Below, one piece after another: positions 5,592 to 15,571 of a stretch of DNA of 64,000 nucleotides. This stretch comes from Gammaproteobacteria bacterium (GTDB taxonomy: Bacteria; Pseudomonadota; Gammaproteobacteria; JAABTG01). The DNA lies in contig JAGNLM010000002.1 in the NCBI GenBank assembly GCA_017999615.1, forward strand, positions 185,633 to 249,632, in the 5' to 3' direction. The notes under the pieces were generated by a model. That model did no database searches. It saw nothing but the letters and a program-made list of their open reading frames with translations, and was not told the DNA's origin. Position 1 is the stretch's first letter. Each line of letters starts with the position of its first letter. A program made the translations under genes and the position numbers.

Positions 5592-8219
5592 CTACCGGGG
5601 ACGCGTCCGCGCGGTCGGCGCCGCCCGCCAGGGGTCCTCGGGCCAGGGATGCCTGGGGTACCTTCCGCGCAACTCCCGGCGCACCTCGGGGTAGGTCCGC
5701 TCCCAGAAGCCCTGCAGGTCCCGCGTGACCTGCAGGGGCCGCCCGGCCGGTGAGAGCAGGTGCAGGGTGACCGGCACCTCGCCCCCGCAGACCCGCGGCG
5801 TCTCCCCCAGCCCGAACATCTCCTGAAGCTTCACCGCCAGCACCGGCGGCTCGCCGGGCCCGTAGGCCAGCCGGCGCCGGGCACCGCTCGGCACGGTGAC
5901 GTGGGTCGGGGCGGCCTCGTCCAGGCGCCGCTGCCAGTTGCCGCCCAGGGCGGCGTGCAGGGTCCCCCGCAGCGCGCCCGCCAGGTCGACCCGCCCCAGG
6001 TGCTCCAGCCGGGTCACGCCCCGCAGGTGCGGGCCGAGCCACTCGTCCAGCGTCGCGAGGAGGCGTCCGTCGGAGAGATCCGGCCAGGACTCTGCCGGCC
6101 TCCAGCCCCTCAGGGAGAGCACCCTGGCCTGCAGTTCCCAAGCGGCGTCGGTCCAGGGCAGCACCGCGAGCCCACGCCGGCGCACCCCCTCGAGCAGGGC
6201 GTGGGCCACCCGGTCCGGGTCCGGCTGGGGAAGCGGGCGGGCCGAGAGCAGGAGCGCGCCCAGGCGCTCCTCCGCCCGGGCGATGACCGCTCCCTCCCGG
6301 TCGTCCCACTCCACCACCTCGCGGACCTCCCTGCGCCCCGCCGTCACCTCAACGAGCGTCTCCGGCGCGAGGGCCGCGGCGAGGAAGATGCGTCCGTCCC
6401 CCGTCCCCGCCTCCAGGGAGGCGGCCACCAGGTACTCCTCCCGGCCGAGGGGATCGGCCTCCGGAAGCCTGGCGCCCCGCCCGCTCGCGAGCCGGTACCG
6501 CGCCCCGTCACCGCCCTGGCGTCTCGCGATCCGGTCCGGGTAGGCGAGTGCGAGGAGACGCCCTGCGGCCGAACGTGGATCCTCCCCGACTGCCCGGGGG
6601 CCTCGCCCTGGCCCGCTTGCGCCCGTCGGCCCCCGGTCCCGGCCCCGGGCGCCTCGGGGCACGACGGACCGGGCCCTGTCCCCGTCCGGGGCGATCTGGC
6701 GGGCGGCCCGGTCGACCCGGGCGCAGGCGGCGGGGTCCGCCCCCAGGGCGCGGGCGCCGGCCTCGCCGTCCACCCGCCAGCGGTGGAGGGCCTCCAGCCG
6801 GTCCGCGAGGTCGCTCGTGCGCCCGGGGCCGGAGGCCCGCAGGACGTCGCGCTCGGAGAGGAGCGCGGCGATGTCACCGGCGAGCGGCCCGAGCCCTTCC
6901 CGCCCCGCCTCGACCAGCATCCGGGCGAGGCGCGGCTGCACGGGCAGCCCGGCCATCCGGAGGCCTGCGGCCGTGATGCGCCCGGCCGAGTCCAGGGCGC
7001 CCAGGCCCGCCAGGAGGTCCCGGGCCTGGGCGAAGGCCCCGGCCGGGGGCGGGTCGAGCCAGCGCAGGGCCCCGGGGTCTGCGACGCCCCACTGGGCGAG
7101 CTCCAGGGCCAGGGGCGCCAGGTCCGCCTCCAGGATCTCCGGGGGATTGAACGCGAGAAGCCCCCGATGCACGGACTCGGTCCACAGGCGGTAGGCGCTC
7201 CCTGGGCCGAGCCGCCCCGCGCGGCCGGCCCGCTGGTCCGCCGAGGCCCGGGAGACCCGCACGGTCTCGAGCCGGGTCAGACCGGTCGCCGGGTCGAAGC
7301 GGGGCCGCCGGGCGAGGCCCGAGTCCACCACGGCCCGGACCCCTTCGATGGTGAGGCTGGTCTCGGCGATGGGGGTCGCCAACACCACCCGACGGCGGTG
7401 GGCGATGGGACGCAGCACCCGGTCCTGGGCCTCGGCCGGCAGGTCCCCGTAGAGGGGAAGGACGGCGACCTCGCCGAGGTCCGCCAGGCGCTCCGCGGTG
7501 GCCCGGATCTCGCCGCCCCCCGGCAGGAACGCCAGGACGTCCCCCGGGTGCGCCGCCAGGGCCCGGCGGACCGCATCGGCCACGAGGTCCGGTACCCCGC
7601 GGGACGAGGGGTCGCGGGGCAGGTAGGAGACCTCCACCGGGAACACCCTTCCCCCGCCCGCGAGGACGGGGGCGCCGCCGAGGACCCCCGCCACGGCCCC
7701 CGCGTCGAGGGTCGCCGAAGCCACCAGCAGCCGCAGGTCCTCACGCAGCCCGGCCCGGACGTCGAGGGCGAGCGTCAGGGCGAGGTCCAGGAGGAGGCTC
7801 CGCTCGTGGGCCTCGTCCAGCATCACCAGGCCCACGCCCTCGAGGGCGGGGTCGCCCTGCAGGCGCCGGAGCAGGACGCCCTCGGTGAGCACCTCCACGC
7901 GGGTGCGCGCCGAGACCCTCTGGTCGAAACGCACCCGATAGCCGATCGTCTCGCCGACCGGCTCGCCCAGGATCTCCGCCATGCGGCCGGCCGCCGCCCG
8001 CGCGGCCAGGCGCCGGGGCTCGGAGACGAGGATCGTCCGGCCCGCGAGCCAGGGCTCGCCGAGCAGGGCGAGGGGCACGAGCGTGGTCTTGCCCGACCCC
8101 GGTGGCGCTGTCAGCACCGCGCCGCGCCCGAGCGCCAGCGCCCGGCGCAGCTCGGGCAGGAGCTCGCGCACAGGCAGGTCGGGGAGGGTCGGGGTGCTCG
8201 CGGTGGGGTCCAGGGGCAT
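5592..8219 (-). CDS. hrpB: ATP-dependent RNA helicase HrpB (DEAH-box)
   Basis: 875 aa; Walker A TAPPGSGKTT near the N-terminus, DEAH box (MLDEAHER); HrpB-length C-terminal domain. Confidence 0.9.
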   Translation of the reverse strand: MPLDPTASTPTLPDLPVRELLPELRRALALGRGAVLTAPPGSGKTTLVPLALLGEPWLAGRTILVSEPRRLAARAAAGRMAEILGEPVGETIGYRVRFDQRVSARTRVEVLTEGVLLRRLQGDPALEGVGLVMLDEAHERSLLLDLALTLALDVRAGLREDLRLLVASATLDAGAVAGVLGGAPVLAGGGRVFPVEVSYLPRDPSSRGVPDLVADAVRRALAAHPGDVLAFLPGGGEIRATAERLADLGEVAVLPLYGDLPAEAQDRVLRPIAHRRRVVLATPIAETSLTIEGVRAVVDSGLARRPRFDPATGLTRLETVRVSRASADQRAGRAGRLGPGSAYRLWTESVHRGLLAFNPPEILEADLAPLALELAQWGVADPGALRWLDPPPAGAFAQARDLLAGLGALDSAGRITAAGLRMAGLPVQPRLARMLVEAGREGLGPLAGDIAALLSERDVLRASGPGRTSDLADRLEALHRWRVDGEAGARALGADPAACARVDRAARQIAPDGDRARSVVPRGARGRDRGPTGASGPGRGPRAVGEDPRSAAGRLLALAYPDRIARRQGGDGARYRLASGRGARLPEADPLGREEYLVAASLEAGTGDGRIFLAAALAPETLVEVTAGRREVREVVEWDDREGAVIARAEERLGALLLSARPLPQPDPDRVAHALLEGVRRRGLAVLPWTDAAWELQARVLSLRGWRPAESWPDLSDGRLLATLDEWLGPHLRGVTRLEHLGRVDLAGALRGTLHAALGGNWQRRLDEAAPTHVTVPSGARRRLAYGPGEPPVLAVKLQEMFGLGETPRVCGGEVPVTLHLLSPAGRPLQVTRDLQGFWERTYPEVRRELRGRYPRHPWPEDPWRAAPTARTRPR

Positions 8220-8407
8220 GAGGGCTCGGGGCTCGGGGCTCGGGGGTCAGGGTCAGCGGCCAGCTACTCGGTGACGGGTGAATGGGGCCCAGGGCCCGCC
8301 GAGACTCTGCACGAGTCGCCCCCCGGGCGAAAGCCCGGGGCCGGCTGGTGGCCCGCGACGGCGCTCTCTAGACTGGGGCACACCCCGCCCCCGGCGAGCC
8401 CCCGCGC

Positions 8408-9559
8408 ATGCAAGACCCACCCACCCCCGCCGATCGCAAGACCCGCGAGCACCCCGGGCCGGACCCGCTCTGCGCACTCGCCCGGTTCGTGGTGGACGGG
8501 GAGCCAGCCCACTCGGAGCCCCTGCGGGTCGGCCTCATCCACGAGAGCCACGTGGTGACCTGCCGAACCCCACGCGGCCCCCGCCGCTACCTCCTGCAGC
8601 GCCTGAACACGGCGGTCTTCCCCGCGCCCGGGCCGGTGATGGAGAACGTCCTGCGGGTGACCCGCCACCTCCAGGAGCGTCAGGCGCAGGCCGAGGTCAG
8701 CGACCTCGAACGGCGCGTGCTCACCGTCGTGCCGAGCCACGAAGGCCCCCCCTGGCACGTGGACGACGCCGGCGGGTGGTGGCGGGCCTACGTCTTCATC
8801 GAGGGCGCCACGTCCTTCGACCGCCCGCCCTCCCCTGCGGCCGCCGAGCGCGCCGCCCGCGCCTTCGGGCGCTTCGTGGCCGACCTCACCGACCTGCCCG
8901 GCCCCCGCCTGCACGAGACCCTGCCGGGCTTTCACGACACCCCCGCCCGCTACCGGGCGCTGCGGGCGGCGGCCGAGGCCGATCCCCTGGGGCGCGCCGG
9001 GGCGGCCCGCGCCGAGCTCGCGGCCCTCGAGGCCCGGCGCGAGCAGCTCGGCGCGCTCCACGAGGCGACCGCCCAGGGCCTGGTGCCGGAGCGGGTCGTG
9101 CACAACGACACCAAGCTGAACAACGTCCTCTTCGACACCGGGACCGGGGAGGCGCTCTGTGTCGTCGACCTCGACACCGTGATGCCGGGCCTCGCCCTGC
9201 ACGACTACGGTGACCTGGTCCGCTCAGCCGCGAGCGAGGCCCCGGAGGACGCCCGCGACCTCGGCACCGTGCGTGTGAACCCGGCGCTGCACCGGGCGGT
9301 GACCCGGGGCTGGCTCGCGCCGCTCGCCCCGCTCCTGACGTCGGCCGAAGCCCAGCTCTTGCCCCTCGCGCCCCGCGTAGTGACCCTGGAGCTCGCCGCG
9401 CGGTTCCTCACCGACCACCTGCTGGGCGACCGCTACTTCCGCACCGGATACCCCGGCCACAACCTGGACCGCTGCCGGACCCAGCTCGCCCTCGCCGCCG
9501 ACCTGGAGCGCCAGGAAGGCACCCTCGCCGCGAGCGTGCGCGAAGCCCTGGGGGGCTGA
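8408..9559 (+). CDS. aminoglycoside-phosphotransferase (APH)-family kinase, substrate unknown
   Basis: APH/Mak-type catalytic loop HNDTKLNNVLF and metal-binding VVDLDT motif. Confidence 0.6.
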   Translation: MQDPPTPADRKTREHPGPDPLCALARFVVDGEPAHSEPLRVGLIHESHVVTCRTPRGPRRYLLQRLNTAVFPAPGPVMENVLRVTRHLQERQAQAEVSDLERRVLTVVPSHEGPPWHVDDAGGWWRAYVFIEGATSFDRPPSPAAAERAARAFGRFVADLTDLPGPRLHETLPGFHDTPARYRALRAAAEADPLGRAGAARAELAALEARREQLGALHEATAQGLVPERVVHNDTKLNNVLFDTGTGEALCVVDLDTVMPGLALHDYGDLVRSAASEAPEDARDLGTVRVNPALHRAVTRGWLAPLAPLLTSAEAQLLPLAPRVVTLELAARFLTDHLLGDRYFRTGYPGHNLDRCRTQLALAADLERQEGTLAASVREALGG

Positions 9560-9640
9560 GCCTCCCCGTTCCCGAACGGCGCGGCTCCCCGCAATACCCC
9601 TTGCGGAGGTCCTCGCCACGGGGACCACCCACCACCGAGC

Positions 9641-9654
9641 TTGACCAGGATCAA
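9641..9654 (+). promoter_or_regulatory. putative FNR/CRP-family box (TTGAC-N4-ATCAA) upstream of nrdD
   Basis: ttgaccaggatcaa matches the FNR consensus TTGAT-N4-ATCAA; anaerobic nrdDG is FNR-activated in E. coli. Confidence 0.35.
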
Positions 9655-9687
9655 ATCCAGAGGATTTGCGCCGGTCTAGACTCTGGA

Positions 9688-9703
9688 CCACAATATGTAG
9701 TGT
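9688..9703 (+). promoter_or_regulatory. putative NrdR box
   Basis: ccacaatatgtagtgt resembles the 16-bp NrdR palindrome consensus acaCwAtATaTwGtgt; lies about 85 nt upstream of the nrdD start. Confidence 0.4.
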
Positions 9704-9787
9704 CCGCAAGCACGAGAGCCCCATCATCCTGTAGTCGCGAGGAAAATCCGCGGCTTACAGCGAGGCCCAGGGGCCGCCCCCGGGAGG

Positions 9788-12766
9788 ATGTCCATGAGTG
9801 CCGTCACCGCCCCGCGTCCCCCGACGCAGCCGTCCCGTATCGTCAAGCGCGACGGGACCCAGGTCCCCTTCGACGCCGAGCGCATCTACTCGGCGATCCT
9901 GCGCGCGGGCCAAGCGACCGGCGACTTCGCGGAGGACGAGGCGCGGTTGCTGACGGCGCAGGTGGTGAAGTTCGTCAGCCACCGCTTCAGCGCCGAGGAG
10001 CCGCCCACCATCGAGCGTGTTCAGGACGTGGTGGAGCAGGTGCTCATCAGCGCCAATCACCTGCAGACCGCGCGCGCGTACATCGTCTACCGCGAGCAGC
10101 ACAAGCGCCTGCGCGACGACCGCCGCACCCTGGTGGACGTGGAGAGCTCCATCCGCGAGTACCTGGACCGCTCGGACTGGCGCGTGTCGGCCAACGCCAA
10201 CCAGGGCTACTCCCTCGGCGGGCTCATCCTGAACACCGCCGGCAAGGTCGTCGCCAACTACTGGCTCTCCCACGTCTACCCCCCCGAGATCGGCAACGCC
10301 CACCGGGAGGGCGACGTGCACATCCACGACCTCGACATGCTCGCGGGGTACTGCGCCGGCTGGTCGCTGCGCACGCTCCTCACCGAGGGCCTGAACGGGG
10401 TTCCCGGCAAGGTGGAGGCAGGTCCCCCGAAGCACATGTCGAGCGCGGTCGGCCAGATCGTCAACTTTCTCGGCACGCTGCAGAACGAGTGGGCGGGCGC
10501 GCAGGCCTTCAGCTCGTTCGACACCTACATGGCGGCGTTCGTGCGCAACGACGGGCTCGGCTACCCCGAGGTGAAGCAGTACGTCCAGGAGCTCATCTAC
10601 AACCTGAACGTGCCCTCGCGCTGGGGGACACAGTGCGTCGACGCCGAGACCGAGTGCCTGACCGACAGGGGCTGGCGGCGCTACGACGAAATCACGGCCG
10701 GCGACCGCATCCTGACGTTTGACTGCGAGCGGAACGCGTTCGAGTACCTGGCGCCGCTCGCGGTCACCGCGTACGACTTCGACGGCGAGATGTACGTCCT
10801 GGAAAATCGGACCCAGGAGCAGTGGATCACACCGGGACACCGGGTCGTACGCAAGCTCTTCCATACGGAGAGCCGCTGGGTGCTCGAGCCGATCGAGGAC
10901 GTGCTCAAGCTGAAATCGCCCTTCATCGTTCCGAATGCCGGCGAGACCCCGGCGACGGTGGAGATGGACGACCGGATGGTCGAGCTGCTGGCCTGGACCG
11001 TCGCGGAGGGGAACTTCGATACCAGCGAGAGCCGCACTCGCGTCTCCCTCTTCCAGTCCACCGTGAACGAGGACAACGTCAGCGCGATCCGCCAGACCCT
11101 GGAGGATCTCGCTTACTCCTATCACGAGCGCCAGGCCGTGGGCGGGTTTTCGCGTCACCCGACCTATCGATTCCGGCTGAACCGCGACGGAAGCGAGGCG
11201 ATTGCGGCGCACACGGACCGCAAGGTCGTGCCCCCCGTGATCCGCACATTGTCGGCCCGGCAGATCCGTCTCTTCCTCGAAACCTACACCAAGGGCGACG
11301 GCAGCACCGAGCCGAGCGGGCGCATCCGCCTCTACACCCGGGACCGCGAGAACCTGGATGCCCTGCAAGAGCTCTGCGTGCTCGCCGGCTGGGGCAGCAC
11401 AGTCCACCGGCGTCAGGACTCCGGCGTCTACGTGCTGAACATCGTTCGCAATCGCGAGACCTACATCCAGAGCGTCACCCGTCGCCCCTACCGGGGCAAG
11501 GTGTGGTGCCCGACGACCCGAAACGGAACCTTCGTGGCCCGCCGTCACGGCAAGACCTTCGTGACCGGGAACACCCCGTTCACGAACTTGACCTTCGACT
11601 GGGTCTGCCCCGAGGACCTGCGCCCGCAGGTGCCGGTCATCGGCGGGAAGGAGATGCCGTTCACCTACGGTGAGCTGCAGCCCGAGATGGACCTGATCAA
11701 TCGGGCCTACATCGAGGTGATGACCGCGGGCGACGCGAAGGGCCGCGTGTTCACCTTCCCGATCCCGACCTACAACGTCACGCCGGACTTCCCCTGGGAG
11801 AGCGAGAACGCGGACCGGCTCTTCGCCATGACGGCGAAGTACGGCCTGCCCTACTTCCAGAACTTCCTGAACTCGGAACTGAAGCCGAACATGATCCGAT
11901 CCATGTGCTGCCGCCTGCAGCTCGATCTCCGCGAGCTGCTCAAGCGCGGCAACGGGCTCTTCGGGTCGGCCGAGCAGACCGGGTCGGTGGGCGTCGTCAC
12001 CATCAACTGCGCGCGCCTCGGGTATCTCTTCCCCGGCGACGAGGCGGGGCTCTTCGCGCGCATGGATCAGCTCCTCGAGCTCGCCCGCAACAGCCTCGAG
12101 ATCAAGCGCAAGGTGATCCAGCGCCACATGGACGCGGGGCTCTTCCCCTACACCAAGCGCTACCTCGGCACGCTGCGCAACCACTTCTCGACCATCGGCG
12201 TGAACGGCATCAACGAGATGATCCGCAACTTCACCGCGGGTGCCGAGGACATCACGACCCCCTGGGGCGAGGAGCTCGCGTCGCGCTTCCTCGACCACAT
12301 CCGCGCGCGGATGGTGGAATTCCAGGAGTCGACGGGCCACCTCTACAACCTCGAGGCGACGCCCGCCGAAGGCACGACCTACCGGTTCGCAAAGGAGGAC
12401 CGCAAGCGCTTCCCGGGGATCCTGCAGGCCGGCAGCCCCGAGGCCCCGTACTACACCAACTCCTCGCAGCTTCCGGTGGGCTTCACCGACGACCCGTTCG
12501 AGGCCCTGGAGCGCCAGGAGAAACTGCAGAAGAAGTACACCGGCGGCACGGTGCTGCACCTCTACATGAGCGAGCGCATCTCGAGCGCCGATGCCTGTCG
12601 GCAGCTCGTCAAACGGGCGCTGGAGCGCTTCCGTGTCCCGTACATCACGGTGACGCCCACGTTCTCCATCTGCCCCAAGCACGGGTACCTGTCCGGTGCC
12701 CACGAGTTCTGTCCCTTCTGCGACGAGGAGGCCCTCGCCCGCAAGCAGGCCGGGGCGTTGCATTGA
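9788..12766 (+). CDS. nrdD: anaerobic ribonucleoside-triphosphate reductase large protein NrdD (class III), intein-containing, lacking the C-terminal glycyl-radical domain
   Basis: N-terminal ATP-cone; conserved NrdD core; Zn-ribbon CPKHG...CPFC at the C-terminus; about 313 extra residues bounded by intein motifs; protein stops before the RVxGY glycyl-radical motif. Confidence 0.9.
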   Translation: MSMSAVTAPRPPTQPSRIVKRDGTQVPFDAERIYSAILRAGQATGDFAEDEARLLTAQVVKFVSHRFSAEEPPTIERVQDVVEQVLISANHLQTARAYIVYREQHKRLRDDRRTLVDVESSIREYLDRSDWRVSANANQGYSLGGLILNTAGKVVANYWLSHVYPPEIGNAHREGDVHIHDLDMLAGYCAGWSLRTLLTEGLNGVPGKVEAGPPKHMSSAVGQIVNFLGTLQNEWAGAQAFSSFDTYMAAFVRNDGLGYPEVKQYVQELIYNLNVPSRWGTQCVDAETECLTDRGWRRYDEITAGDRILTFDCERNAFEYLAPLAVTAYDFDGEMYVLENRTQEQWITPGHRVVRKLFHTESRWVLEPIEDVLKLKSPFIVPNAGETPATVEMDDRMVELLAWTVAEGNFDTSESRTRVSLFQSTVNEDNVSAIRQTLEDLAYSYHERQAVGGFSRHPTYRFRLNRDGSEAIAAHTDRKVVPPVIRTLSARQIRLFLETYTKGDGSTEPSGRIRLYTRDRENLDALQELCVLAGWGSTVHRRQDSGVYVLNIVRNRETYIQSVTRRPYRGKVWCPTTRNGTFVARRHGKTFVTGNTPFTNLTFDWVCPEDLRPQVPVIGGKEMPFTYGELQPEMDLINRAYIEVMTAGDAKGRVFTFPIPTYNVTPDFPWESENADRLFAMTAKYGLPYFQNFLNSELKPNMIRSMCCRLQLDLRELLKRGNGLFGSAEQTGSVGVVTINCARLGYLFPGDEAGLFARMDQLLELARNSLEIKRKVIQRHMDAGLFPYTKRYLGTLRNHFSTIGVNGINEMIRNFTAGAEDITTPWGEELASRFLDHIRARMVEFQESTGHLYNLEATPAEGTTYRFAKEDRKRFPGILQAGSPEAPYYTNSSQLPVGFTDDPFEALERQEKLQKKYTGGTVLHLYMSERISSADACRQLVKRALERFRVPYITVTPTFSICPKHGYLSGAHEFCPFCDEEALARKQAGALH
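10634..11572 (+). mobile_element. intein with LAGLIDADG-type homing-endonuclease domain, inserted in-frame in nrdD
   Basis: Starts CVDAETECLTDRG, which aligns with intein block A of Sce VMA (CFAKGTNVLMADG). Two degenerate LAGLIDADG-like motifs (LLAWTVAEGNFD, LFLETYTKGDGS). Ends NGTFVARRHGKTFVTGN followed by Thr (+1). Flanking exteins join as SRWGTQ-TPFTNLTFDW. Confidence 0.75.
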
Positions 12767-12882
12767 CGAAGGGAAACCGCAGAGGCGCGAAGGCGCAGGG
12801 AAGATTTGCCGTGTCGAATCTTCCGATTGCCTCGTGCCTCGGTAGTGAGTGACTGAGAACAGGACTTCAGGAGGAGAAACCG

Positions 12883-13050
12883 ATGCGTGAAGATGGAATC
12901 GATCTGAACGAGAACGAGCGCACGCGCTGCGAGGTGTGGACGCGGGTGATGGGCTACCACCGCCCGGTGACCGCGTTCAACCCCGGCAAGCAGTCCGAGC
13001 ACCGGGAACGCACCCCGTTCCTCGAGAGCCGCTGCGCGCCGCGCTGCTGA
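12883..13050 (+). CDS. stand-alone glycyl-radical domain protein (NrdD C-terminal module encoded separately, 55 aa)
   Basis: AGGAGG SD 8 nt before ATG; contains TRVMGYHRPVTAFNPGKQSEHRER, matching the NrdD glycyl-radical signature RVxGY...FNxGKxxExxER; ends in the Cys pair CAPRC. Confidence 0.6.
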   Translation: MREDGIDLNENERTRCEVWTRVMGYHRPVTAFNPGKQSEHRERTPFLESRCAPRC

Positions 13051-13069
13051 TTGCGGCCAGGGCCTTCTT

Positions 13070-13108
13070 CCCCTGCGGCAGGGGGCTTCTTTCCCCTGCC
13101 GCAGGGGG
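13070..13108. terminator. two tandem GC hairpins between the convergent glycyl-radical gene and the BT1 transporter
   Basis: cccctgcggcaggggg and cccctgccgcaggggg, each a 7-bp stem, embedded in a 22-bp imperfect direct repeat. Confidence 0.35.
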
Positions 13109-13118
13109 TTGCCTCCCC

Positions 13119-14825
13119 TCAGGCGCTGCGCAGCCGGGCCAGGCGGACGACGGCGACAGCGGCGAGGGGCGCGAGCAGCCCGATCAGCATGGCGGTGAGC
13201 ATCAACTCGCCAAGGGCGCTGTAGTCCGCGGGCACCTGCACTGCCCCGGTTGCGGCGTCCTTCACCTCCCGCGTCACCACGAACCACTCGTTCAGATACT
13301 TCGTGCCCAGCTGACTCGCCGACAGGGCGAGGTTCGTGAACGAGGCCATCACCGCGAAGAACGTCGCCTTCAGGCCTGCCGGCGCGGAATTCGCGATCCA
13401 CGCGAGCATGGGCACCATCGCCACCTGACCGAGCGGTGACTCAAGGGCGGTGTCCACCAGCGCGATGAAGCGCGCGTCCACCACCCCACCGGTGAGCGCC
13501 GCCGCCCACTCGTGCAGCCCATGGTACATGCCGATGATCGGCAGGTAGAGGGCGCTCGCCACGAGGGTCAGCACCACCACCACGACGGCGATCGAGCGCT
13601 CGGCCATGAACCGCCGGAACAGGAACAGCCCGACGAGCGCCAGGGCGCTGCTGATGAGCGAGAGCACCGCGAGGAACTGCTGGTCGAAGCCGAGCCGGTC
13701 GATCATCCACCAGGTCTGCCCCGCCCCGGGGGTCGGCATCGCGCGGTAGACGAAGATCACGATCGCCGTTCCCAGGAGCACGCGCCGCGCGGGCGCGTCG
13801 AGCACGAGGACCAGCCGGTACATCAGGAACAGCACGATCGCCATGGACCCGGCAAAGACGATCTCCTGGTCGTAGGGCACGTCGCTCAGGCCGATCACGA
13901 CCGTGAAGAAAACGAACACGATGCTGCCGCCCAGGATCCAGAGGTTCGGCTCGGTGCGCGTGACCTCGCCCTCGAGGAGCCGGTGCGCCGCCCGCGCCTC
14001 GATCCCGCCACCCGTCAGGCGGCGGACCGCCCGGCGCTTGAGGTAGGCCGCGAGCACCACGCCGAGCACGGAGACGACCGGGATGAGGAGCGCCCACTCG
14101 TAGATCCGCACGTACGCGGAGAGCTTCGCCCCATCCGACATGTTCGCCACGCCCTCGAACACGTACACGTTCAGGAGTGAGACGAACACGCCGCCGCCGA
14201 TGATGGCGATGCGCCCGAGGGTCTGCATCGTCGTGTGCATGAGCTTGCGGGCGGCGGAGTCGATGGGCTCGCCCGCCGCGTCCACGCGGGGCACCGCCTC
14301 CACCGTCATGGCGTCGGCGACCACGTCCTGCAGCACGTACCCGATCGGGGCGAGCAGCACGCTCGCCACGTACCAGGCATCCACCGGCATCACCGCCTCC
14401 ATGACGGCACGTTCGGTGAGCAGCGCGAGCATGATGGAGAGGCTCGCGGTGATGAGTCCGGCGCCCCCGAACACCAGCACGCCCTTGAAGCGCCAGAGGA
14501 GGTCCACGAGGTGCCCGAGGGGCATCTTGAGCGCCCAGGGGATCCCCGCCCAGAAGCCGAGCGCGGCGAGGAACGCCGCCGAGAGTCCGAGGTACTCCTT
14601 GACGAAGAAGGTGCCGACGATGCCGGTCAGCCCCGACACCCCCGCTGCCACGTAGACCATGAGCGGCGGCAGGTACGACCAGCGCATCTGCCTCCCGAGG
14701 TCCACCACGTTGCGGTCGAGCCAGGCCCGGAGGCCGCTCGGCGTGCTTTGTCCCTGCAAGACGTCGCCCTCCTCTCCTGGTGCCGGCGGGAAGCGGCGCG
14801 GGCGCTGCGTGCGCGCCGGGAGCAC
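13119..14825 (-). CDS. folate-biopterin transporter (BT1) family MFS membrane protein
   Basis: About 12 TM helices with BT1-like composition; start uncertain (alternative Met 46 codons downstream at 14687). Confidence 0.65.
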   Translation of the reverse strand: MLPARTQRPRRFPPAPGEEGDVLQGQSTPSGLRAWLDRNVVDLGRQMRWSYLPPLMVYVAAGVSGLTGIVGTFFVKEYLGLSAAFLAALGFWAGIPWALKMPLGHLVDLLWRFKGVLVFGGAGLITASLSIMLALLTERAVMEAVMPVDAWYVASVLLAPIGYVLQDVVADAMTVEAVPRVDAAGEPIDSAARKLMHTTMQTLGRIAIIGGGVFVSLLNVYVFEGVANMSDGAKLSAYVRIYEWALLIPVVSVLGVVLAAYLKRRAVRRLTGGGIEARAAHRLLEGEVTRTEPNLWILGGSIVFVFFTVVIGLSDVPYDQEIVFAGSMAIVLFLMYRLVLVLDAPARRVLLGTAIVIFVYRAMPTPGAGQTWWMIDRLGFDQQFLAVLSLISSALALVGLFLFRRFMAERSIAVVVVVLTLVASALYLPIIGMYHGLHEWAAALTGGVVDARFIALVDTALESPLGQVAMVPMLAWIANSAPAGLKATFFAVMASFTNLALSASQLGTKYLNEWFVVTREVKDAATGAVQVPADYSALGELMLTAMLIGLLAPLAAVAVVRLARLRSA

Positions 14826-14872
14826 CCCGGGGGGCGCCGCCTCCCCGGCGAGGCGCGAGTATACTTGCCCCC

Positions 14873-15571
14873 ATGCTGGAAATCGGCGGCCTCACGCCGC
14901 TCACCACCATCGACTTCCCCGGTCGCCTCGCCGCCGTGGTCTTCTGCCAGGGCTGCCCCTGGCGCTGCGGCTACTGCCAGAACGCGCACCTGATCCCGCC
15001 CTCGGCCGAGAAGGCGGTCCCGTGGGTGGACGTCCTCGCGTTCCTCGAGCGCCGCCGCGGCCTCCTCGAGGGGGTGGTGTTCAGCGGCGGCGAGCCGACC
15101 CTGCAGTCGGGACTGCCGGAGGCCCTGCGTCAGGTCCGGGGCCTCGGCTTCGCCACCGGACTGCACACGGCGGGCCCCTATCCCGAGCGGCTCGCGGCGG
15201 TGCTGCCCCTCCTCGACTGGGTCGGGCTCGACGTGAAGGCGAAGGCCGCGGCCTACCCCGCGCTCACTGCGGGAGGTCCTGCGAGCGGCGAGCGGGCCTG
15301 GCAGAGCCTGCGCCGGGTGCTCGCGAGCGGGGTCGCCTGCGAGGTGCGCACCACCATCCACCCGGACCTCCTCCCCGAGGCCGACCTCCTCTCCCTCGCC
15401 AGCGTGCTCGCCGAGGCCGGGGTGACGGACTACGCGCTGCAGGAATGCGTGACCGGGCGCTGCCTCGACCCGGCGCTCGCCCGCCCCTCGCGGCCTGCGA
15501 GGGTCTCGGCGGCGCTCTCCGCAGCCCTCGCAGGCCTGTTCCCGCGGTTCACGGTCCGGCGGGAGTCCTGA
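14873..15571 (+). CDS. nrdG: anaerobic ribonucleotide reductase activating protein NrdG (radical SAM)
   Basis: CQGCPWRCGYCQN radical-SAM cluster motif right after the start MLEIGGLTP; glycine-rich SAM motif GGEP. Confidence 0.85.
   Translation: MLEIGGLTPLTTIDFPGRLAAVVFCQGCPWRCGYCQNAHLIPPSAEKAVPWVDVLAFLERRRGLLEGVVFSGGEPTLQSGLPEALRQVRGLGFATGLHTAGPYPERLAAVLPLLDWVGLDVKAKAAAYPALTAGGPASGERAWQSLRRVLASGVACEVRTTIHPDLLPEADLLSLASVLAEAGVTDYALQECVTGRCLDPALARPSRPARVSAALSAALAGLFPRFTVRRES

Follow-up and report, generated by a model that had tools for sequence, protein, structure and literature searches.

A putative bifunctional LAGLIDADG intein at a conserved site of the anaerobic ribonucleotide reductase NrdD in a gammaproteobacterium

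The window analyzed here is a 64,000-nucleotide stretch of contig JAGNLM010000002.1 (assembly GCA_017999615.1, Gammaproteobacteria bacterium; position 1 is its first letter). It carries nrdD, the gene for the catalytic subunit of a class III ribonucleotide reductase, and this gene is interrupted in frame by a 939-bp segment at 10634-11572 (+ strand, as for all features of nrdD and the insert given below). We conclude, with a probability of about 0.85, that the segment is a bona fide and intact bifunctional intein, i.e., a HINT splicing domain with a nested LAGLIDADG homing endonuclease, lodged in the conserved NrdD motif TQ/TPFTN. An original prediction, made from the DNA letters and their translations, had proposed a LAGLIDADG-type intein inside nrdD. 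This identification is borne out by the exact absence of the segment from near-identical alleles, by its intein blocks and LAGLIDADG_3 match, by a modeled HINT plus LAGLIDADG fold, and by homology to the Bethlehem intein, which is known to splice (PMC5050341). The feature is a precise insertion that is polymorphic within effectively one species. It belongs to a large, already characterized family of Gly-Asn-terminated inteins and occupies a commonly used NrdD site, so that the copy in the window is a new member of a known group.

Boundaries and domains of the insertion in nrdD

The nrdD open reading frame (ORF) spans 9788-12766 and comprises 992 codons, with the stop codon TGA at 12764-12766; homologues begin at its second methionine, position 9794. 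Profile matches (PF13597, 1.8e-165; NF006126, 1104 bits) identify the product as a class III catalytic subunit that carries an ATP-cone at its N terminus. In both Pfam and NCBIfam the NrdD match is broken into two stretches around the insert, the C-terminal stretch of NF006126 being 594-985. The N-extein (9788-10633), supported by the Pfam ATP-cone and NRDD matches and by NF006126, comprises the ATP-cone plus the initial portion of the NrdD barrel and ends in NVPSRWGTQ. The C-extein (11573-12766) starts with Thr+1 of TPFTNLTFDW and extends to just past the CPFC zinc-site motif. Between them, the insert is translated without a stop codon into 313 residues, Cys1 to Asn313, which read CVDAETECLTDRG...FVARRHGKTFVTGN and close with the letters KTFVTGN. 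The evidence for it comes from comparison with intein-less alleles, from a family alignment and from an AF2 model.

A search with the computationally spliced exteins recovered two intein-less NrdD proteins of 677 residues (P0005 and P0006), which share 99% identity with the spliced exteins and show the junction RWGTQTPFTNLTFDW, as well as a 990-residue NrdD (P0007) that bears the same insert. At the DNA level, the window aligned by blastn with two metagenomic contigs lacking the 939 bp (L001 and L002) at 97.3–98.0% identity, and the alignment breaks exactly between 10633 and 11573. The coordinates of the two contigs are contiguous across the break (5840 to 5841 and 2235 to 2236), their junction reads RWGTQ directly followed by TPFTNLTFDW, and the empty site of L001 is CTGAACGTGCCCTCGCGCTGGGGGACACAG followed by ACTCCGTTCACAAATCTGACCTTCGACTGG. 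The N-extein DNA is 98.7% identical to L001, and the contig of the intein-bearing P0007 (L003) is 98.9% identical to the window across its full 6405 bp. The translation and the exact DNA break confirm the 313-codon in-frame insert, its coordinates, its flanks and its motifs as originally described, and the extein junction proved exact in both intein-less proteins and both contigs. The original prediction had named the presence of the same 313 residues as a native domain of homologous NrdD proteins as the observation that would speak against it; P0005 and P0006, 99% identical, are without them. The site could also be placed in T. maritima NrdD. Here a phmmer search of the PDB with a 173-residue extein fragment gave no match, and the full intein-less protein located the site between the Gln and the Ser/Thr of the common motif TQ(S/T)P(F/Y)TN, which in T. 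maritima is QSPYTN.

The splicing domain is assembled from both ends of the insert, and its conservation was assessed in an alignment of the window intein with 150 relatives (best cluster representatives; n = 151). The N-terminal half, residues 1-104 (10634-10945), is supported by this alignment and by a splicing-domain profile match to 6zgq (2.7e-13). Block A (CVDAETECLTDRG, 10634-10672) opens with Cys1 (A:1), present in all 151 sequences. Block B contains T66-P-G-H69 (10829-10840), with Thr66 (B:7, 128/151) and the invariant His69 (B:10, 151/151), and also Arg70 (B:11, 10841-10843; 113/151) and Val71 (B:12, 10844-10846), a position taken by Val in 42, Met in 30, Trp in 30, Ile in 15 and Cys in 15 of the 151 members. 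The C-terminal half, residues 276-313 (11459-11572), holds blocks F and G. Within block F (KVWCPTTRNGTFVARR), Cys292 at 11507-11509 occupies F:4 and is conserved in 140 of 151 sequences (93%); the remaining 11 have Ser, Gly or Asp, two of them Gly, and all 11 retain Cys1. In a profile alignment Cys292 falls on the Asp of IYDLTV in the Mja KlbA intein, i.e., Asp147, which is block F position 4 (Tori et al., PMC2807308). The F:4 assignment is based on this alignment, because a direct phmmer search of the PDB with the C-terminal 49 residues, aimed at aligning blocks F and G with 6zgq, returned chance matches only. Block G, KTFVTGN, ends in Thr311 (G:5; Thr in 107 and Thr or Ser in 131 of 151), Gly312 (G:6; 145/151) and Asn313 (G:7; 149/151), encoded at 11564-11572, and the +1 residue that follows is Ser in 90, Thr in 50 and Cys in 10 members.

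The AF2 model of the intein, built with 22 relatives, reached a mean confidence (pLDDT) of 94.5 and a predicted TM score (pTM) of 0.91. Its top Foldseek matches in the PDB are endonuclease-bearing inteins, namely TliVMA (1.4e-16), PhoVMA, PI-PfuI, PI-SceI and PI-PkoII, and 6zgq is matched too. The five endonuclease-bearing inteins have the same two-domain architecture and fold (Foldseek E 1e-16 to 1e-11; query-normalized TM 0.57–0.70), but they are only 9–14% identical to the window intein in these comparisons and are larger, with extra DNA-recognition regions. Their F:4 residue is the canonical Asp and their termini are His-Asn. Among PDB sequences, the splicing-domain profile matches the inteins AceL NrdHF, Mja KlbA, Spl DnaX and Mtu RecA. 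The insert therefore combines an exact in-frame insertion with an N-terminal Cys, a block B TxxH, an Asn followed by Thr+1, and a HINT fold. The penultimate His, a common but not obligatory intein feature, is absent, and Gly312 stands in its place. The N-terminal Cys in its block A context and the Gly-Asn end before Thr+1 are thus present as predicted. The view that the penultimate Gly makes this an atypical intein holds insofar as the residue is non-canonical; it is not peculiar to this copy, since 145 of 151 family members share it and published relatives with Gly splice efficiently (PMC5050341, PMC7891396).

The LAGLIDADG domain occupies residues 105-275 (10946-11458). It is recognized by LAGLIDADG_3 (PF14528; 4e-08, 33.8 bits against a cut-off of 22.5), by PI-PkoII at the sequence level (1.2e-05), and by the fold of I-DmoI (Foldseek E ~1e-7). 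The first motif, residues 116-127 (VELLAWTVAEGN, VELLAWTVAE125GN; 10979-11014), contains the catalytic Glu125 at 11006-11008, and the second, residues 212-224 (RLFLETYTKGDGS, RLFLETYTKGD222GS; 11267-11305), the catalytic Asp222 at 11297-11299. An acidic residue (Asp or Glu) is found at position 125 in 149 and at position 222 in 147 of the 151 family members. Both motifs had been noticed before and called degenerate, a description that does not fit the retention of both catalytic residues. Among the Pfam, NCBIfam and PADLOC-type libraries, LAGLIDADG_3 was the only match to the insert, and PHROGs gave only weak matches, to intein-containing phage proteins.

Relatives of the intein and polymorphism of its site

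Two experimentally studied inteins are particularly informative. The intein in the recombination directionality factor (RDF)/phosphoesterase gene of mycobacteriophage Bethlehem (numbered gp52 in GenBank but gp51 by Kelley et al. 2016, PMC5050341) reads CSWTN...EVWCLRVPNGRFF...GKIHLTGN before Ser and can be aligned with the window intein over the entire length (27% identity, E 2e-18). The two full-length LAGLIDADG inteins are similar in size (317 vs. 313 residues), start with Cys1 and have in common the block B motif IT.xHRVV, VWC in block F, and a C-terminal TGN before Ser/Thr. They differ in host protein (phage RDF vs. bacterial NrdD) and host phylum, and the identity is only ~27%. Experiments showed that splicing of the Bethlehem intein is complete, that its endonuclease is toxic in E. 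coli, where only an inactivating mutant was recovered, and that changing its Gly to the canonical His (G316H) slows splicing so that precursor accumulates (Kelley et al. 2016, PMC5050341).

Of all PDB sequences, AceL NrdHF (6zgq) is matched best by the splicing-domain profile (2.7e-13). AceL NrdHF-1-1 has Arg69 (B:11), Met70 (B:12), Cys124 (F:4) and Thr144-Gly145-Asn146 before Ser and is without His at F:13 and G:6 (Hoffmann et al. 2021, PMC7891396). The equivalents in the window intein are Arg70, Val71 (in place of Met), Cys292 and Thr311-Gly312-Asn313 before Thr, and both His residues are absent here as well. In AceL NrdHF, Arg69 hydrogen-bonds the C-scissile carbonyl and R69A slows splicing, while G145H abolishes it, with a predicted clash with Arg69; with Ala1, this intein is proven to be class 3 (PMC7891396). 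It is also an obligate class 3, naturally split intein with a GIY-YIG gene between its halves and no LAGLIDADG domain, in the class Ib ribonucleotide reductase beta subunit of a probable phage, whereas the window intein is encoded in one piece, starts with Cys1 and includes a LAGLIDADG domain. The canonical class 3 inteins (MP-Be DnaB, Msm/Mch DnaB-1, Dra Snf2; PMC2807308, PMC6195587, PMC7664689) resemble the window intein in Cys F:4, Thr G:5 and Ser/Thr +1, and in an F:4 Cys situated between both splice junctions. They differ in lacking an N-terminal nucleophile, in Trp at B:12 and in keeping the penultimate His, and they match the splicing-domain profile weakly at most (E 0.27–0.64).

The extent of the family became visible only in a full HMMER scan of 1.84 billion cluster representatives with the intein, which returned 10,167 proteins at E ≤ 0.001, 4,284 at ≤ 1e-10 and 126 at ≤ 1e-30; a word-indexed protein search with the intein alone gave four matches. 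The majority of the top 150 matches span residues 1-313, and many proteins hold several such inteins. Of the 150 best representatives, 25 use the same NrdD site (R..xQ followed by [ST]PFxN). The family also resides in phage portal proteins, N6/N4 DNA methylases and phosphoesterase. Among GenBank phages there are 370 matching records, mostly mycobacteriophage DNA methylase, portal and phosphoesterase genes. In the same phage collection, full-length relatives are carried by 83 Rheinheimera phage records and about 20 Escherichia phage records. One representative, P0141 (1443 residues), is an NrdD with an N-terminal NrdR-type zinc ribbon and intein matches at ~369-653 and 746-1058.

A further 10 loci, from genomes of Chromatiales and other Gammaproteobacteria, also have an intein at this site. 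Same-site copies with 65–82% identity to the window intein come from an Ectothiorhodospiraceae metagenome-assembled genome (MAG), from MAGs of Chromatiales and other Gammaproteobacteria, and from Thiohalocapsa, Lamprobacter modestohalophilus DSM 25653 and Halochromatium. A scan of viral contigs for a close vector copy yielded only two distant relatives (27–36% identity). NrdD inteins have been reported before, in Clostridium phage c-st and, as an intein remnant, in Lactococcus phage 949 (PMC3653736). They have their host protein in common with the window intein and mark class III ribonucleotide reductase as an established intein target; those cases are phage genes, whereas the present intein lies on the chromosome of a purple-sulfur-type gammaproteobacterium. 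Pectobacterium phage CB7, considered as a further case, was set aside, as its inteins lie in helicase, NrdA and NrdB rather than NrdD.

Three states of the site were observed among close relatives: empty (L001, L002), occupied by the full intein (window, L003), and occupied by an intein with a shortened endonuclease (L004). The last is from the MAG of a sister species within the Ectothiorhodospiraceae (CALMKJ010000037.1, intein at 5902-6714), whose contig shares ~92% identity with the window overall and 98% in the protein sequence of the exteins. According to blastn and protein alignment, the L004 intein is without residues 146-187, an in-frame deletion of 42 residues or 126 bp that corresponds to 11069-11194 of the window, and is otherwise 94% identical. 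The deletion lies between the LAGLIDADG motifs and leaves both motifs and all splicing blocks in place, so that this copy looks like a natural step towards a mini-intein. Together, the three states fit a homing cycle.

The intein-bearing (window, L003) and intein-less (L001, L002) alleles are further distinguished by four synonymous differences at positions +3, +12, +15 and +16 of the C-extein, where the intein-bearing alleles carry ACC..ACG AAC TTG. Over the 135 nt that precede the site, these alleles do not differ. The window's 3' flank of 18 nt (11573-11590), ACCCCGTTCACGAACTTG, recurs unchanged at the intein-bearing Halochromatium locus. This cluster of substitutions at the junction is suggestive of a co-conversion tract left by homing or of a change in the endonuclease target site, as seen in one population pair. 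Ratios of nonsynonymous to synonymous substitution (dN/dS), calculated after Nei-Gojobori with five other same-site copies as species pairs, were 0.16–0.19 for the splicing domain and 0.15–0.42 for the endonuclease domain. Because these values are well below 1 in both domains, they point to purifying selection on both activities. The GC content at third codon positions is 0.89 in the intein, slightly under the 0.95–0.96 of the exteins.

Splicing route and competing readings

We infer splicing, the order of its nucleophiles, the role of Arg70 and the endonuclease activity as follows. The nrdD gene would be translated as a 992-residue precursor, from which the intein would excise itself, joining Gln282 to Thr+1 and yielding a 679-residue NrdD large chain that is 99% identical to the sequence of intein-free strains. 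Most likely, Cys1 forms the N-terminal thioester, activated by Thr66 and His69. The N-extein would then move to the hydroxyl of Thr+1, and the active-site residues Cys292 and Thr311 would assist or possibly relay the transfer. Asn313 would cyclize without a penultimate His, with Arg70 presumably polarizing the scissile carbonyl, by likeness to AceL NrdHF. Once freed, the intein is expected to act as a LAGLIDADG endonuclease that cuts intein-less nrdD at the TQ/TPF-coding site, and repair would copy the intein into the cleaved allele (homing).

Several observations weigh against this reading or parts of it. Splicing and DNA cleavage of this protein rest on homology. The insert has no match to the Pfam intein-splicing profile PF14890 even at E ≤ 1, although some relatives (P0137, P0141) do. 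In the profile check proposed with the original prediction, LAGLIDADG_3 did match, and blocks A, B, F and G emerged in the family alignment. Within the active site, the 93% conserved Cys F:4, the Thr/Ser at G:5 and the Ser/Thr at +1 in 140 of 151 members are class 3 marks, and AceL NrdHF, whose splicing domain is the nearest with a solved structure, has been proven to be class 3 (PMC7891396). As to the endonuclease, 42 residues of this domain are already gone in a close relative (L004). Finally, synonymous divergence (dS) between the window and L004 is 0.20 for the intein and 0.15–0.16 for the exteins. Since the two are close, the intein may have been passed on mostly by vertical descent in the recent past of this lineage, and the polymorphism would then stem from loss and not from fresh homing.

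The likeliest alternative is that the intein splices but its endonuclease is inactive. Such an intein would persist by vertical descent, because its loss requires a precise deletion, and the empty alleles would reflect recombination or loss. The in-frame nuclease deletion in L004 demonstrates that decay occurs in the lineage, intein and extein dS are similar between the window and L004, and no close relative on a potential vector emerged from the viral-contig scan. Against these points stand the intact catalytic acidic residues and LAGLIDADG helices, the high confidence with which the nuclease domain is modeled, and its dN/dS of 0.15–0.42, well under 1. Presence/absence polymorphism at 98.7% nrdD identity and the synonymous cluster at the junction also argue for an active endonuclease. 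We thus consider an inactive nuclease a serious but lesser possibility and retain the bifunctional intein as our interpretation.

A second alternative concerns the chemistry of the same intein. By the definition of Tori et al. 2010 (PMC2807308), class 3 inteins have no N-terminal Cys, Ser or Thr nucleophile, carry Trp at B:12, combine a Cys in position F:4 with Thr in G:5 and Ser or Thr in +1, and pass through an obligate branched thioester at block F. Of the sequence marks, those at F:4, G:5 and +1 are present in the window intein (Cys292, Thr311 and Thr+1), while an N-terminal nucleophile is present (Cys1, 151/151) and B:12 is Val71 rather than Trp. Because these two defining features are lacking, its sequence is not that of a class 3 intein by the published definition, even though the active site is class 3-like. 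The residues required of a class 1 intein, C1, T66 and H69, are in place. Class 1 initiation is favored on these sequence grounds, because Cys1 is invariant and the 11 relatives substituted at F:4 keep it.

In a class 3-type route, by contrast, Cys292 would attack the N-terminal junction and form a branched thioester at block F before transfer to Thr+1, and Cys1 would be a dispensable relic. This route draws support from the alignment of Cys292 with F:4 and from the family-wide frequencies of Cys at F:4 (140/151), Thr/Ser at G:5 (131/151) and Ser/Thr at +1 (140/151). AceL NrdHF, with the same MCT/TGN signature and a B:12 residue other than Trp, was shown to be class 3 (PMC7891396), and at least one intein with both an N-terminal nucleophile and WCT, MP-Catera Gp206, has been treated as class 3 (PMC3196547). 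However, a dispensable Cys1 would not be expected in 151 of 151 sequences. Nor would it be expected in the 11 relatives without Cys at F:4, of which two have the non-nucleophilic Gly; these keep Cys1 and all else. In addition, B:12 is Val rather than Trp and B:7 is a class 1-type Thr, and Kelley et al. treated the Bethlehem RDF intein as class 1, without a mechanistic test (PMC5050341). On balance, we regard the class 3-type route as unlikely and prefer initiation by Cys1. More speculatively, the combination of Cys1 with a class 3-type active site (Cys F:4, Thr G:5, Gly G:6, Arg B:11) raises the rather improbable idea that the family bridges class 1 and class 3 both in mechanism and in evolution, either through a Cys1-Cys292-Thr+1 relay or through a Cys1-Cys292 disulfide that acts as a redox trap. 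If such a trap existed, maturation of the oxygen-sensitive NrdD would be held back under oxidizing conditions and released on return to anoxia; the F:4-Cys disulfide of Msm DnaBi1 is a precedent for redox control (PMC6195587).

The weakest alternative, that the 313 residues are a native lineage-specific NrdD domain or foreign DNA that turned nrdD into a pseudogene, the insert staying in the protein in either case, can point to the missing PF14890 match but is very improbable given same-species alleles that precisely lack the segment and are otherwise 99% identical, its occurrence in unrelated hosts (phage portal protein, DNA methylase, phosphoesterase), an intact ORF under purifying selection with all splicing residues conserved, intact nrdG and glycyl-radical ORFs alongside, and a core-motif position (QSPYTN in T. 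maritima) that is hard to square with a working enzyme if the 313 residues stay.

The split nrdD, its neighborhood and implications

In the window, nrdD is encoded in two parts. The large ORF ends just past CPFC, and the homologues of ~677–690 residues all end just after CPxC. The glycyl-radical loop (CEVWTRVMGYHRPV...NPGK; RVMGY) is encoded by a separate 55-codon ORF at 12883-13050 (+), which matches Pfam NRDD positions 531-561 of 562 (3.4e-08) and is preceded 8 nt upstream by the ribosome-binding site aggagg. This small ORF is present in L001-L003, where it is called as a gene, and in L004-L014, with or without the intein, so that the two-gene layout is a lineage trait independent of the intein. 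The original prediction had regarded an intein in an additionally split nrdD as an unusual combination. This claim is not sustained, because the layout occurs in all relatives examined regardless of the intein. Moreover, an intein of the same family at the same site (46% identity) resides in an unsplit NrdD, P0125, of 1227 residues, in which Pfam NRDD is matched to position 562 of 562. The arrangement suggests a separately encoded, perhaps replaceable radical-bearing peptide, by analogy with GrcA/YfiD for pyruvate formate-lyase. A term search of a 2026 review on glycyl radical enzymes found no mention of a split NrdD.

The window and both intein-less contigs, L001 and L002, have a common gene order: HrpB helicase, APH-family kinase, nrdD, the 55-codon NRDD ORF, a BT1 transporter and a radical-SAM activase. 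Between the small nrdD ORF and the convergent minus-strand gene of the BT1-family transporter, two adjacent GC-rich hairpin-like repeats, cccctgcggcaggggg and cccctgccgcaggggg, are located at 13060-13120 and may be bidirectional terminators. Within 8000-15000, long ORFs of up to 1002 residues overlap nrdD and its neighbors on the opposite strand or in other frames, the longest at 9755-12763 (-). As the DNA has 71% GC and stop codons are rare, these look like shadow ORFs and not genes.

For annotation, these results mean that nrdD should be read as giving one functional product after splicing rather than a 992-residue enzyme, and that the Gly-Asn terminus of the intein should not be taken as a defect. 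The current understanding of inteins is unchanged unless experiments on nucleophile order or redox behavior give an unexpected answer. The family-wide pair of Cys1 and the F:4 Cys does raise the question of which cysteine starts splicing, and whether the pair could serve as a redox switch in an oxygen-sensitive enzyme. With empty, full and endonuclease-deleted alleles in one species-level population and its sister species, the locus offers a clean natural series for work on the homing cycle in uncultured sulfur bacteria.

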